From: Verrucomicrobiota bacterium
GTDB lineage: Bacteria > Verrucomicrobiota > Verrucomicrobiia > Limisphaerales > CANJSG01
NCBI GenBank assembly: GCA_038209745.1
Contig: JBBQXJ010000008.1
Coordinates: 16,298 to 80,297 of the forward strand
Length of the DNA: 64,000 nucleotides
Direction: 5' to 3'
Shown piece by piece: positions 30,370 through 34,518 of this stretch. The stretch's first letter is position 1, and the number at the start of each line of letters is the position of its first letter. Below the pieces are notes generated by a model, which had not been told where the DNA came from, searched no databases, and saw only the letters and a list, made by a program, of their open reading frames with translations. The position numbers and the translations under genes are program-made.

Positions 30370-31110
30370 GTCGGCGCCAATGCCTCCAGTTTTTCGTCCA
30401 ATATCTCCAAGAGCCGCCGTACTCGCTGAATCCGACTGTAGGCCACCAGTTGCATCGGCGTGCGTTCCTATTTAGGCAGACATAGCCGCCGTAGATGCTC
30501 CGCGCTGAGATGGGCCCGCTTCGCCAATTCCCCCGACGACCACGCCGCTCCGGACTCGCGCTCAACTTCGTCCCACAGCTTCCAGAGTCGGCGATTGCCC
30601 TGCCACAGGCTCGCCAACCGGGCCGCCGCTCCATGCACCAGACTAAACCAATGATGCACGAACTTCGGATCGCGGGCACCGATGCCTGCGCCCCAGGGAC
30701 CTTCGATCATCCGCGCCAACTCGGTTCCGCCTCCGCTGCCCTTCATCGGGGACATAGCTCCCACAAACGGCTGAATCCATGGCGGCTCGTCGTAGCGCAA
30801 CCAAGCCATCGTGAACGGACTGCCAATTATGTGGCGAAAAACGCGTTCACTACCCGCAGCGGAGCCATGGAGGCCATTCCTTTGGCCACACGCTGCCATC
30901 TTCCATCGATCAAGATGCGATCTTCACCCTGCACACAGGCCAAGAAAAAAACTCCCGCCGGCCGAAGTCGGACCCGCCGATAAGGAGCGCACCCATCGTC
31001 CCGACCGAGCCTGGAAATCCGTTGCGGCGCCAACTCAGGACAATCCGCCAATCCGATTCGCCACCATCGCAAACCTGGACCATCCGCCGTCGACGAGGTC
31101 AGTTCAAAGG
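30370..31110 (-). pseudogene. AraC-family transcriptional regulator pseudogene; boundaries approximate
   Basis: Three pieces: PYRRVRLRPAGVFFLACVQGEDRILIDGRWQRV; frameshift to WLRYDEP...WSSGELAKRAHLSAEHLRRLCLPK; in-frame TAG (30468) then RTPMQLVAYSRIQRVRRLLE...EKLEALA. Second HTH truncated. Confidence 0.75.
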
Positions 31111-31367
31111 GATCTGCGGGCGCACCGCGACGCGATCCGTCGATCGGACCCGATGTCACCGGCTTCCTCTGCCCCGCAGCATTTTTCCTCCTGTCGCCGA
31201 AATCGGAAAAAACAGTTCCTGAACCAAGTCCAACCGAGAACCTGCGATCACATTCTGCGCCTGACTCCCTCGAACCCGGGTCCACCGAACGTTCGCCACC
31301 CATCACAGCCGCAAACTGGATTTGCCGTCCCGCCACTCGGCGGCTTAGTCTCCGTCCAGTTACCCCT

Positions 31368-32219
31368 ATGAAATCCTTGCTGACTGCATTCCTGATCGCC
31401 CTCCCGGCCGCTTTTTACAGCCCCAGTGTGATGGCCGCCACGCCGTCTCCAAAGCCGCTCCGCGCATTGCTGGTCATCGGTGGCGGTTTCCACGACTACG
31501 CGGTTCAAAAGGACATTCTCAAGCAAGGCCTCGAAGCCCGAGCCAATCTGCACGTCGATGTCTGCTATGCTCCGGCTCCCGGCAACGCGACCAAGATGCG
31601 CTTCGACTGCTATACGAACGCCAATTGGGCGGCCGGATATGACGTCATCATCCATGACGAGTGCTCCGCTGACGTGACCGACATTCCCTATATCCAAAAC
31701 ATCCTCAACGCCCACAAGAAGGTGCCCGCCGTGAACCTGCACTGCACGATGCACTGCTACCGGATCGGCAACCCGGGCGACAAGGTCACCGAACTCGGCA
31801 CGCCCCACAGCCAATGGTTCGAATTCATCGGAATCCAATCCAGCGGCCATGGCGCCCAATTGCCGATCAGCATCAACTTCCACGAGCACCCCATCACGAA
31901 AGGCATGACTAATTGGACCACGATCCAGGAGGAGCTCTACAACAACGTGAGAGTGTTCGACACCGCGACGGCCCTCGCCAATGGCCATCAAACGGTCAAA
32001 GGCCGCGACGGCGCCGATCGGGTAGACGACACGGTCGTGGTCTGGGTCAACAACTACCAGGGCGTCCGGGTCTTCAACACCACGCTGGGCCACAACAACG
32101 CCACGGTGGCCGACCCTCGGTATCTCGACCTCGTGACCCGCGGCCTCCTCTGGTCGGTGGACCAACTCGACGCCAACGGCCACGCAAAAACGGGCTACGG
32201 CCCCGTGTCGACCAAGTAG
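31368..32219 (+). CDS. Secreted ThuA-like domain protein
   Basis: Signal peptide; LRALLVIGGGFHDY, VNLHC, HPITKG, EELY, RVFNTTLGH, LVTRGLLW. Confidence 0.88.
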   Translation: MKSLLTAFLIALPAAFYSPSVMAATPSPKPLRALLVIGGGFHDYAVQKDILKQGLEARANLHVDVCYAPAPGNATKMRFDCYTNANWAAGYDVIIHDECSADVTDIPYIQNILNAHKKVPAVNLHCTMHCYRIGNPGDKVTELGTPHSQWFEFIGIQSSGHGAQLPISINFHEHPITKGMTNWTTIQEELYNNVRVFDTATALANGHQTVKGRDGADRVDDTVVVWVNNYQGVRVFNTTLGHNNATVADPRYLDLVTRGLLWSVDQLDANGHAKTGYGPVSTK

Positions 32220-32240
32220 AGTCAAGCCCCAGAGCCTCCG

Positions 32241-32275
32241 CGAAAAACCGCTCCGCTTTCGGGCGGCTTTTTTCG
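32241..32275 (+). terminator. Intrinsic terminator after the ThuA-like gene
   Basis: CGAAAAA-CCGCTCCG-CTTT-CGGGCGG-CTTTTTTCG. Confidence 0.7.
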
Positions 32276-32317
32276 TTCGCGACCATGCGCCATCCGCGAT
32301 CGTGCCAGGAACAAAAG

Positions 32318-32348
32318 TTGACTTTTTAACTCAAATCCTATCTATTAA
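32318..32348 (+). promoter_or_regulatory. Candidate sigma70 promoter for the leader peptide
   Basis: TTGACT followed 17-19 nt later by AT-rich TCTATTAAT; 20 nt upstream of ATG 32369. Confidence 0.5.
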
Positions 32349-32368
32349 TTACCTAAGTGAAACGGACC

Positions 32369-32452
32369 ATGAACAAAGTCTTTACTGGAACATGCCTGCA
32401 TCGCATTGCGATGTGCTGCTGGCGCTCCATGGCTTTGGGCACCGTGGTCTGA
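32369..32452 (+). CDS. Putative 27-aa attenuation leader peptide MNKVFTGTCLHRIAMCCWRSMALGTVV
   Basis: ATG 32369 to TGA 32450-32452, read by hand. The last codons coincide with the antiterminator strand. Confidence 0.65.
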   Translation: MNKVFTGTCLHRIAMCCWRSMALGTVV

Positions 32453-32522
32453 GACAGAATTGAAACAGAATTTGTTTATCAGACCCACGGTTGCGAAAGC
32501 AGCCGTGGGTTTTATGTTTTTT
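32439..32522 (+). promoter_or_regulatory. Transcription attenuator (mutually exclusive antiterminator/terminator)
   Basis: Terminator AGACCCACGGTTGC-GAAA-GCAGCCGTGGGTTT-TATGTTTTTT (32481-32522). ACCGTGGTCTGA (32441-32452) is complementary, with one bulge, to TCAGACCCACGGT (32479-32491). Confidence 0.75.
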
Positions 32523-32588
32523 GTGCATCGCCCGCGCAAATCCGATCACTCCATCAAAAACAAACAACAGACCGACAACACAGACAGT

Positions 32589-32933
32589 ATGACAACCAAA
32601 GACAAGTATCCGCCCATCAAGTATGGAGGGGAAACACGGTTCGGCGTCGAAGCCAGGCCCGTGCCCTTCCGCGCAACGCTGGAAACTGAACTCGACCGGC
32701 TCAAGAACCGGCTCGTTCTGAACTACCTGAGCGAATTCGCGGAGCCCGAGTTCAACCGACTCCTCCGGCAGGCCGCCAATGAAGCCGCTGCGCTCGCTGG
32801 CATCTCGGCCTACCCTCTGCTGTTGCTGCCCTCGCTTCTCGAAGAGAAGGCGCGGGAAGCTCGGCGGCAGGTCGCCCGGCAAAACGTCATCCGCTCCCGC
32901 AGTTCACTCCTCCTTCACGAGGTAGCGGCATGA
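32589..32933 (+). CDS. Hypothetical, mostly helical protein (114 aa) downstream of the attenuator
   Basis: MTTKDKYPPIKYGGETRF...ELDRLKNRL...LRQAANEAAALA...PLLLLPSLLEEKA. ATG follows an A/C-rich leader and codon usage is host-like. Confidence 0.75.
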   Translation: MTTKDKYPPIKYGGETRFGVEARPVPFRATLETELDRLKNRLVLNYLSEFAEPEFNRLLRQAANEAAALAGISAYPLLLLPSLLEEKAREARRQVARQNVIRSRSSLLLHEVAA

Positions 32934-32957
32934 TTATCGACCTCTCCCTCTGTAGCT

Positions 32958-33020
32958 GGACGGGGAACCGTTGACGCCGCCCGCCCGACCGTGTCGGGCC
33001 GCGTCAACGGTTCCCCGTCC
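32958..33020. repeat. Long hairpin: perfect 20-bp stem plus inner 6-bp stem
   Basis: GGACGGGGAACCGTTGACGC ... CCCGAC-CGT-GTCGGG ... GCGTCAACGGTTCCCCGTCC. Confidence 0.85.
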
Positions 33021-33085
33021 TTGCCGCTTCGAGCGACGGACCGATTACGTTTGGCAGACGTTTCCGTTCCAGCCATTTCTCTGGG

Positions 33086-34201
33086 GTGAGCGATCTCCCG
33101 CCCGACATACGACCCAAACGCCGCCACCGTTACTCCGGGAAGAACCCGAGGCGGTTCCATGAGAAATACAAGGAGCTCGATCCGAACCGTTACGCCGACG
33201 ACATCGCCAAAGTTCTGGCCTCCGGTAAAACCCCCGCCGGCACCCACCGCCCGATCATGGTTTCGGAGATCCTTGAAGCGCTCGCACCCAAGCCCGGCGA
33301 GATCGCAGTGGACTGCACCCTCGGTTTCGGCGGGCACTCGACCGAACTTATCCCGGCCCTGCTTCCGGGGGGGAAACTCTTCGGCCTCGACGTAGACCCG
33401 ATCGAACAACCCAAGACCGAGCAACGCCTCCGCGCCGCCGGCTTCGGTCCAGAATCCTTCCAGACCCGCCGGATGAACTTCGCCGGACTGGCCAAGCTGG
33501 TCTCCCAAGAATCGTTGACGGGAGTGGATCTGGTGTTGGCCGATCTCGGAGTCTCCTCCATGCAGATCGACAATCCGGACCGGGGTTTCACCTTCAAAGC
33601 CGACGGCCCCCTCGACCTCCGCCTCAATCCTGAACGGGGCCAATCCGCAGCCTCGCTGCTCGCCAAAATCGACAGCGTCCGCCTCGCCATCCTCCTATCG
33701 GAAAATGCCGACGAACCTCGCGCCCAATTCCTCGCGGACGCCATCTTCGACGCCCAGTCTGGAGCTCCGATCATGCGGACCCAGCAATTGGCTGATGTGA
33801 TTCGGTCGGCTTTGGCCGGCCCGGGCAGGGATCCGGCAAAGATCGAGACCAGCGACACCCTGCGCCGCGTCTTCCAAGCGCTTCGCATCGCGGTCAACGA
33901 CGAGTTCGGCGCGCTCGATTCTCTGCTCCGCGTCCTGCCGAACTGCCTGAATCCGGGAGGCAGGGTGGCTATATTGAGCTTCCATTCCGGCGAGGATCGG
34001 CGCGTGAAAAAGGCGTTTCAAAACGGCCTCCATGATGGCGTCTATTCCAGAGTATCCACGGATGTCATCCGACCCGGACCGGAAGAAATTCGCGCCAATC
34101 CACGCTCTTCGTCAGCAAAACTCCGCTGGGCCGTGCGCGCGAAACCAATTGGCGCGACCAAACGTCCCACAACCGGACAGCCTCTCGTGCGCTATCGTTA
34201 A
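33086..34201 (+). CDS. rsmH: 16S rRNA m4C1402 methyltransferase RsmH (long N-terminal form)
   Basis: HRPIM, DCTLGFGGHS, LADLGVSSMQID, RGFTF, FQALRIAVNDE, SFHSGEDR, NPRSSSAKLR. Confidence 0.93.
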   Translation: MSDLPPDIRPKRRHRYSGKNPRRFHEKYKELDPNRYADDIAKVLASGKTPAGTHRPIMVSEILEALAPKPGEIAVDCTLGFGGHSTELIPALLPGGKLFGLDVDPIEQPKTEQRLRAAGFGPESFQTRRMNFAGLAKLVSQESLTGVDLVLADLGVSSMQIDNPDRGFTFKADGPLDLRLNPERGQSAASLLAKIDSVRLAILLSENADEPRAQFLADAIFDAQSGAPIMRTQQLADVIRSALAGPGRDPAKIETSDTLRRVFQALRIAVNDEFGALDSLLRVLPNCLNPGGRVAILSFHSGEDRRVKKAFQNGLHDGVYSRVSTDVIRPGPEEIRANPRSSSAKLRWAVRAKPIGATKRPTTGQPLVRYR

Positions 34202-34518
34202 TCCCATCCATTGACAGCAGAACCCTACTCCAGATGGGCAGATCCCGCGCGATTGTGCCCTTGTCGAAGATGTTCCGTTTTTGGAATCGGATAACCACCC
34301 CTTTCTCAACCGTTTGGCGGTGCCTCAGTCTCTAATACTTGCACCATCCCCTTGGAGCAGAAGGCAGGTCTTTGGTAAGTTGAATCACATTTTGCGGGGA
34401 ATGGATTCGTCCGTTTCCGGCAGGACTCAGGGTCAGCGGAGAGTCGGAGCGGAGTTCGCGCCGTCCATTTCTGCAGATGAATTGGATCCTGAACTTTGCG
34501 GCGCATCGTCGCCGAACC

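Follow-up and report, generated by a model that had tools for sequence, protein, structure and literature searches.

A probable leader-peptide transcription attenuator upstream of an orphan gene family of Verrucomicrobia

The locus considered here occupies positions 32318–32933 of a 64,000-nucleotide stretch of DNA, hereafter the window, from contig JBBQXJ010000008.1 of a Verrucomicrobiota bacterium of the order Limisphaerales. It contains a promoter-like sequence, a short leader open reading frame (ORF), an intrinsic terminator, and a gene encoding a protein of 114 amino acids (aa). The original prediction, which was made from the nucleotide sequence alone, listed a TTGACT box, a 27-codon ORF, a terminator with a T-tract, and the 114-aa gene, and all these elements are indeed present in their places. 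Comparison with related loci and folding of the leader indicate that the locus is, with good though not full confidence, a leader-peptide (ribosome-mediated) transcription attenuator. The features of the locus, all on the plus strand and given as positions within the window, are as follows.

32318–32323, plus strand: −35-like box TTGACT; TTGAC is invariant in all 30 aligned relatives, and the box is presumed to be part of a promoter.
32341–32346, plus strand: T-rich −10-like hexamer TCTATT, presumed, 17 nt after the −35-like box (alignment columns 27–32).
32357–32452, plus strand: leader ORF, 31 codons from the GTG at 32357 or 27 codons from the ATG at 32369, with the TGA stop codon at 32450–32452.
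32364–32378, plus strand: region 1 (GGACCATG...CAAAG), which pairs with region 2 in minimum-energy folds; the ATG at 32369 lies inside it.
32414–32422, plus strand: TGC-TGC-TGG (Cys-Cys-Trp), of which the family keeps only the Trp codon at 32420–32422.
32433–32452, plus strand: region 2, the 5' strand of the predicted antiterminator (CTTTGGGCACCGTGGTCTGA), spanning the final five codons and the stop codon.
32454–32475, plus strand: small A/U-rich hairpin within the antiterminator stem, seen in the window folds.
32479–32494, plus strand: region 3, which can pair with region 2 as the antiterminator or with region 4 as the terminator.
32481–32523, plus strand: intrinsic terminator with a 14-bp stem, a GAAA loop, and a T-tract; the stem-loop itself is at 32481–32512.
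32589–32933, plus strand: putatively regulated 114-aa gene, with ATG at 32589 and the stop codon at 32931–32933; it belongs to an orphan family specific to Verrucomicrobia.

Read from the ATG at 32369 to the TGA at 32450–32452, the 27-codon leader ORF is MNKVFTGTCLHRIAMCCWRSMALGTVV; the open-reading-frame listing adds the 31-codon form, which starts with the GTG at 32357. The terminator of the window has 14 pairs, eight of which are G-C, and a GAAA loop followed by TATGTTTTTT. The 114-codon gene starts 76 nt after the stem-loop. The gene of the ThuA family located upstream (31368–32219, Pfam ThuA) has its own terminator (32248–32266), and the region between this terminator and the 114-aa gene is A/T-rich. 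In the alignment of 30 relatives (alignment A3), positions T27 and T29 of the −10-like hexamer are nearly invariant, and T32 is invariant.

Relatives of the 114-aa protein were detected in 189 of the 301 sampled genomes of the order, including 125 of the 200 high-quality ones. The record titles of the related loci name Verrucomicrobiota, Verrucomicrobia subdivision 3, Limisphaerales, and Pedosphaera. Thirty loci from the genome search and 80 from the related-locus search, after removal of 11 duplicates, gave 99 distinct loci. A search with an nhmmer profile found the leader, nearly full length, upstream of the gene in all 99 of them. The covariance model R1 detected the leader in 85 of 151 genomes of the order, and every strong match was located directly upstream of the protein gene. 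In the genome from which the window originates, the leader and the gene are each present in a single copy, with no further copies of the leader. Among 21 more divergent members of the protein family, 13 are preceded by a leader ORF and eight are not.

No Rfam family explains the leader in the scanned part of the window (31500–33800) or in four relatives. The Rfam models of amino-acid leaders have no match in the window at E ≤ 10, and in the relative L019, His_leader and Thr_leader reach 28.2 and 26.4 bits, short of their gathering scores of 49 and 55, respectively. Downstream of the orphan gene in the same relative, a region on the minus strand (L019:2686–2731) scores 36.5 bits with the Rfam family Acido-Lenti-1 (E = 2.6e-5), just short of the gathering score, which is 37.

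The whole leader of the window folds with an energy of −69.3 kcal/mol (z = −4.46), and none of 200 shuffled sequences is as stable. Its final codons and stop codon, GGCACCGTGGTCTGA (32438–32452), are complementary to TCAGACCCACGGTTGC (32479–32494), which bears out the claim that the end of the ORF can pair with the 5' arm of the terminator. The energy of the antiterminator hairpin formed in this way is −24.8 kcal/mol, against −26.1 kcal/mol for the terminator of the window. If the 3' arm of the terminator is omitted, the antiterminator becomes the minimum-energy fold, in which GGCACCGUGGUCUGA pairs with UCAGACCCACGGUUGC, that is, with the terminator 5' arm. The 74-nt antiterminator piece has a z-score of −4.15, and none of 200 shuffles folds equally well. 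The leader ORF alone folds into a rod, where the start-codon region GGACCAUG pairs with region 2.

Pairing was counted in 75 diverse leaders (alignment A4), and as a control, the partner strand was shifted by 1–3 columns. In the terminator, 98.4% of the cells of 14 pairs are paired, and eight pairs change on both sides. For the antiterminator (region 2 with region 3), 94.8% of the cells of ten pairs are paired, compared with 32–40% when the partner is slid; the 30-sequence alignment gives the same outcome. Two antiterminator pairs show two-sided changes (A-U to G-C and G-C to A-U), mostly in one genus. The helix formed by region 1 (codons 3–5) and region 2 has five pairs, with 88.3% of the cells paired, and one A-U to G-C switch is seen in seven sequences. 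Unguided RNAalifold predicts the 1:2 helix and the terminator on the full leader alignment, and the antiterminator once the terminator 3' arm is cut off. Covariation of the stems among homologs, proposed as a check in the original prediction, is seen best in the terminator. An intrinsic terminator and a mutually exclusive antiterminator overlapping the end of the ORF, an arrangement characteristic of attenuators, are predicted here from the aligned sequences. As a separate observation, the small hairpin of the relatives that is equivalent to the one at 32454–32475 takes in the stop codon; this was noted by reading the sequences.

With region 2 translated as GGC-NNC-GTG, the start codon of the alignment shares this frame in 95 of the 99 loci, and 94 loci have an intact ORF. 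Of the remaining five, L057 and L098 are merely misaligned and do possess an ORF. The leaders have 30–39 codons and fall into eight length classes (35 codons in 46 loci and 36 codons in 23), and all the differences between the classes are whole codons. Counted from the GGC of region 2, the stop codon comes seven codons later in almost every locus and four codons later in the genus of the window. Unlike the ORF, the spacer between the stop codon and the terminator (24–35 nt) differs by single bases. Frame +1 is open in none of the 94 leaders.

As for the start codon, the position of the ATG at 32369 is occupied by ACG in five of the seven sequences of the window's genus, while the GTG four codons upstream is kept in all seven. 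For this reason, the conserved start is probably the GTG at 32357; the ORF of the original prediction exists, but its length would be 31 codons rather than 27.

The mean entropy at the first, second, and third codon positions is 0.73, 0.96, and 0.91, respectively, in the 35-codon class, and 1.06, 1.13, and 1.20 in the 36-codon class. In the C-terminal codons, the third base of GGC is fixed, and in the GTG codon, the second base varies (Val, Ala, or Glu) and the third is fixed. The codon between them (position −6) encodes Ile, Asn, Val, Ser, Gly, or Asp. Since the second codon positions vary as much as the third ones, the peptide does not appear to be the conserved object. On the evidence of the alignments, it is the RNA and the frame that are conserved, and the role of the ORF is apparently to place the ribosome. 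A short ORF that is conserved as an ORF upstream of the presumed target gene is a hallmark of leader-peptide attenuators, and by this comparison, the locus has one.

For each of 11 leaders, 27 nt around every possible P-site were masked to represent a ribosome, and equilibrium pairing probabilities were calculated for the transcript ending at the terminator loop. Most of these leaders are predicted to form the antiterminator with a probability of about 0.9 if no ribosome is present or if the P-site is within the first ~24 codons, and of about 0 if it is within the last ~11 codons. The window's own leader behaves less sharply; its antiterminator probability is 0.4–0.6 and falls to 0 with the P-site in the last ~11 codons. 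Because termination is predicted only with a ribosome on the last ~11 codons, any delay of translation should switch the gene on.

The following mechanism can be proposed. A conserved TTGACA-type promoter would give rise to a transcript whose first ~110 nt encode an ORF of 30–39 codons. Region 2, formed by the last codons of the ORF, would pair either with codons 3–5 (region 1) or with the terminator's 5' arm (region 3). If a ribosome were on the last ~11 codons or at the stop codon while RNA polymerase was making regions 3 and 4, region 2 would be covered, and the terminator would form. If the ribosome were delayed upstream or not loaded, the 2:3 antiterminator would form, and the gene would be transcribed. 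The signal would then be the rate of leader translation relative to transcription, i.e., a general read-out of translation stress, and the likeliest slow points would be the conserved Trp codon and the nearby Cys and Met codons. The ORF, its frame, the position of its stop codon, and the three alternative helices are supported by comparison of the aligned leaders, whereas we infer from this arrangement that the leader is translated, that the promoter is active, which way the switch works, and what it senses. The geometry of ribosome-mediated attenuation stated in the original prediction is therefore upheld by the intact frame and by the pairing of both the antiterminator and the terminator.

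Several observations weigh against this interpretation. A scan of positions 31000–34500 with a simple sigma-70 consensus called no promoter, so that the promoter of the original prediction is backed by the invariant TTGAC of the 30 relatives but not by the scan. The covariation is thin in the antiterminator and in the 1:2 helix, and one genus accounts for a large part of it. The cause is the unusually strong conservation of the nucleotide sequence, which is to be expected of a strand that serves two or three partners and a reading frame as well. The leaders of three loci appear damaged or shifted: the frame of L024 is shifted, though it still stops just past region 2, L052 is frameshifted relative to its ATG, and L065 has an internal stop codon. 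Frame +2 is open in 58 of the 94 leaders, and openness alone is thus weak evidence; the case for the ORF rests on the start, the stop, and the whole-codon insertions and deletions. In the masking model, the leader of L009, from the same genus as the window, is folded without a ribosome into an extended 1:2 helix, which wins over the antiterminator; antitermination is predicted there only while the ribosome occupies one of the first ~10 codons, the Trp codon itself, or the codon after it. Finally, the equilibrium model leaves out kinetics, and region 1:2 is formed first in the course of transcription. The untranslated state may therefore be OFF in some members of the family, possibly including the clade of the window, as in the trp operon.

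The original prediction regarded TGC-TGC-TGG as the sensing element. These three codons are not conserved as a unit. In the nearest relative (83% identical DNA), they are replaced by TGT-TTT-TGG (Cys-Phe-Trp), and most leaders read Gly-x-Met-Ser/Ala-Ile-Trp-Gln/His/Thr-Arg. A single Trp codon is what persists: at least one is present in 88 of the 94 leaders (exactly one in 83, two in five, and none in six). Counted from the C-terminus in the 87 leaders outside the window's genus, Trp is located at position −15 in 66, −14 in ten, and −16 in three. The aligned Trp position is occupied by Cys, Gly, Glu, or Arg in nine of the 99 leaders. At least one Cys is found in 91 of the 94 leaders, in the form of one to three scattered codons. 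Relative to a rough background of the window's long ORFs, Cys is enriched 5.4-fold, Met 4.6-fold, Thr 2.4-fold, and Trp 2.3-fold. All 13 leaders of the divergent paralogues contain Trp, even in L179 and L159, where the sequences of the terminator arms are unrelated. A run of regulatory codons, typical of amino-acid operons, was found in none of the 94 leaders. The conserved Trp codon probably has a function, be it in slowing the ribosome, as a residue of the peptide, or as part of the RNA.

Three other explanations of the locus can be weighed against these data. The leader could be an amino-acid attenuator, in which poor charging of tRNA-Trp or tRNA-Cys makes the ribosome pause at the single Trp codon, with the Cys codons contributing, and the pause induces a small regulatory protein. 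The persistence of Trp and its placement 14–16 codons before the stop in 79 of the 87 leaders fit this explanation, as do the frequency and enrichment of Cys, the presence of Trp in every divergent paralogue leader, and the specific antitermination in L009 with the P-site on the Trp or the next codon. A second leader with a Trp codon lies before an EamA transporter gene in the relative L156, and in Bacillus subtilis, a small regulatory protein and an EamA-type protein are encoded together in the rtpA-ycbK operon, which is controlled through tRNA-Trp sensing. Yet there is only one Trp codon and no run, whereas Leu leaders of the same construction have clear Leu runs. The Trp position is also replaced in the nine leaders mentioned, and Cys-Cys is lost even in the nearest relative. 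The TGG is part of a conserved nucleotide block, GTCCATTTGGCA, and lies in predicted stems, so its conservation may reflect the RNA. The target is no gene of a Trp or Cys pathway, and in the masking model, a ribosome stalled at any of the first ~24 codons, and not just at Trp, would give readthrough. Overall, we consider this explanation doubtful, although it is the most credible of the three; what remains of the proposed Cys/Trp sensor is the conserved Trp codon and the frequent, scattered Cys codons.

Less probable still is a sensor based on nascent-peptide arrest, with a leader that, with its Trp about 15 residues from the C-terminus, stalls the ribosome in response to a small molecule or an antibiotic in the manner of TnaC or Erm. 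The recurrence of Trp at −15 (66 of the 87 leaders), the C-terminal pattern G-x-V-G-x-x-F, and the fixed position of the stop codon are what such a sensor might display. The C-terminal codons are constrained at the level of nucleotides rather than amino acids, however, and there is no overall excess of third-position variation. A ribosome held at the stop codon would, according to the model, favor the terminator, giving the same result as its normal arrival. The ligand-dependent arrest peptide suggested by the original prediction is accordingly disfavored by the variability of the second codon positions. The lowest standing of all belongs to an element acting at the level of RNA alone, with an incidental ORF: a riboswitch, a binding site for a protein (such as the 114-aa protein itself, in autoregulation), or an abundant terminated small RNA acting in trans. 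The very high conservation of the RNA sequence, including the terminator loop and the AUUUGGCA block, and the lack of selection on the peptide agree with it. With a promoter box that matches the consensus and a strong terminator, a terminated RNA of ~175 nt would be expected in abundance, and trans-acting attenuator RNAs have been reported for trpL of Sinorhizobium. Nevertheless, the start column, the frame, and the stop codon are kept across eight whole-codon length classes, for which an RNA-only element provides no reason, and no Rfam family matches. Moreover, a trans role of the terminated RNA would supplement attenuation and not exclude it. Two minor readings of sequence motifs were dropped by eye, since the spacing misfits the respective consensus: a sigma-54 promoter at TGGCA and an elemental pause at AUUUGG.

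If the locus is an attenuator, a read-out of the general rate or capacity of translation is favored as its signal over tRNA-Trp/Cys sensing and over an arrest peptide; this is a leading but tentative assignment, somewhat short of an even chance. Sensing of Trp-tRNA charging, with or without Cys, is a possible but weaker candidate. Some other signal is rather unlikely, and an arrest peptide or a ligand is improbable. A more far-reaching proposal is that the locus is a dedicated sensor of translation stress or tRNA-Trp charging, whose output is a new small regulator, the ~112-aa three-helix protein with its weak resemblance to a sigma-2 domain, working with the conserved divergent zinc-ribbon Ser/Thr kinase or with RNA polymerase. 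Together they would make up a new order-wide pathway from ribosome status to signaling or transcription, and the abundant terminated leader RNA might act in trans. We regard this as speculative and unlikely in its entirety.

The weaker matches of the R1 model share the same build, namely region 2 in the last codons, a stop codon, a spacer of ~25 nt, a terminator, and a T-tract. Most of them are Leu-codon-rich leaders located before leuA, the gene of 2-isopropylmalate synthase (HMGL-like, IPMS_D2, or LeuA_dimer), and one lies in front of the gene for a paralogue with 30% identity to the orphan protein. Leu-rich leaders occur among L147–L164 (e.g., L150, L154, and L160), for instance ...LRLSLLNALLLG..., with an antiterminator and a terminator. 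In L156 (G017:C34:9016–11003), a leader ORF with Val-Val-Trp and then a terminator lie before the gene of the EamA-family transporter. As the Leu-rich leuA leaders share this build, ribosome-sensing attenuators appear to be in use in the order. To judge by these leaders, where an amino acid is sensed in the clade, a codon run is present. No obvious leader was seen, by eye only, upstream of trpE and the pabB-like genes of the window's own genome.

Leader-peptide attenuation is textbook knowledge for amino-acid operons of Proteobacteria and some drug-resistance genes. The leader described here resembles trpL, hisL, thrL, and leuL of Escherichia coli in having a short leader ORF, the 1:2, 2:3, and 3:4 helices, and a stop codon placed so that the terminating ribosome blocks region 2. 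Unlike them, it has no codon run, and its target is an orphan small protein instead of a biosynthetic operon. Region 1 is located at codons 3–5, far from the Trp codon, and without a ribosome the 2:3 helix is predicted to outcompete 1:2 at equilibrium in most members. The corresponding Rfam families (RF00513, RF00514, RF00506, and RF00512) score below their gathering thresholds here, and the codon run, the biosynthetic target, and the model match that mark membership in them are all missing.

Arrest peptides of the TnaC, SecM, and Erm types are defined by constraint at the level of amino acids. The present leader shares with them its small size, the constant spacing between a Trp and the C-terminus, and the constant position of the stop codon, but the conservation of an arrest motif as an amino-acid sequence is absent.

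Similar in logic are two leaders without a codon run, responsive to translation stress or antibiotics, in which, as is predicted here, the position of the ribosome selects the RNA structure. As reported, the bmrB leader of bmrCD in B. subtilis has an intrinsic terminator with alternative stem-loops and requires leader translation (PMC4191407), and the toiL leader of topAI in E. coli responds to stalls at different positions through occlusion of the ribosome-binding site and Rho (PMC12121999). Their targets are a multidrug ABC transporter and a toxin–antitoxin system, respectively, in contrast to the orphan, predicted three-helix protein here, and the toiL mechanism so described differs from the intrinsic terminator of the present leader. 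No sequence relation of bmrB or toiL to this leader was found.

The mechanism is thus of a known kind, and it is the target that is unusual; no new principle is involved. A description of this leader–gene unit was not found in the open-access papers and bioRxiv preprints searched. Its significance lies in the apparent fixation of the same logic, before an orphan gene, across a whole order of little-studied Verrucomicrobia of soils and sediments. The leaders also provide evidence that one attenuator chassis has been reused, being Leu-rich for leuA and Trp-containing here and before the EamA gene. As the conditions under which the switch opens are accessible to assay, the leader gives a testable handle on the function of the orphan family, and with it a defined route into a regulatory module of a poorly studied phylum. 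As an RNA family absent from Rfam, the leader could be added to annotation pipelines, which overcall the N-terminus of the gene through it. Examples of such overcalling are the protein database entries P0001 and P0097–P0102, which are 139–246 aa long compared with ~112 aa, the usual size in the family. The longer database forms of the orphan protein are overcalled N-termini of this type, with no informative fusion among them.

In line with the statement that the gene product is not a recognizable enzyme, the orphan protein has no Pfam or NCBIfam family. A profile search against the PDB gave only chance-level rows (E ≥ 0.36), and Foldseek found no match in the PDB at E ≤ 0.001. A search of the ESM Atlas gave only hypothetical Verrucomicrobiota clusters. 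The structure predicted by AlphaFold2 from 40 sequences has a disordered N-terminus of ~27 residues and three helices (28–49, 53–71, and 76–113), with a mean pLDDT of 81.7. In a wide structural search with VIA-align, the best Z was 7.7, which is in the range common for helical proteins. About one-fifth of the 50 rows of this search are sigma-2 domains of sigma factors (Z of 5.7–7.5), which can be taken as a lead only. Residues 59–99 of the 114-aa protein also have a weak tblastn match elsewhere in the genome from which the window originates, on the minus strand at C57:22050–22172 (49% identity, E = 0.009), which could reflect either a distant paralogue or chance.

The neighbors of the gene in relatives, which the original prediction suggested listing, include a divergently oriented Ser/Thr kinase gene located upstream in 66 of the 88 scorable loci (e.g., L049:1189–2184 and L047:1031–2143, both on the minus strand). 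The kinase is ~332 aa in length and has four invariant N-terminal cysteines resembling a zinc ribbon, with a mean column identity of 83%. In the window and its nearest relative, the ThuA gene replaces the kinase at the upstream position. The downstream neighbors vary and include a CitMHS_2 transporter, rsmH, a WecG transferase, and rpoD.

Two further structural details of the locus were noted. Between the T-tract and the main start codon, there is a weak stem in the window (~32522–32542). In 45 of the 99 loci, this interval contains a second hairpin of variable sequence with a minimum free energy ≤ −6 kcal/mol, followed in relatives by a purine-rich GAAAGG/GAAAGA stretch (e.g., L013, L019, and L089). 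Directly 3' of the 114-aa gene, before rsmH, a long, near-perfect inverted repeat is located (32948–33033). Its arms of ~24 bp, ACGGGGAACCGTTGACGC.../...GCGTCAACGGTTCCCCGT, give spurious matches to microRNA models on both strands, and it may be a bidirectional terminator or a repeat element.

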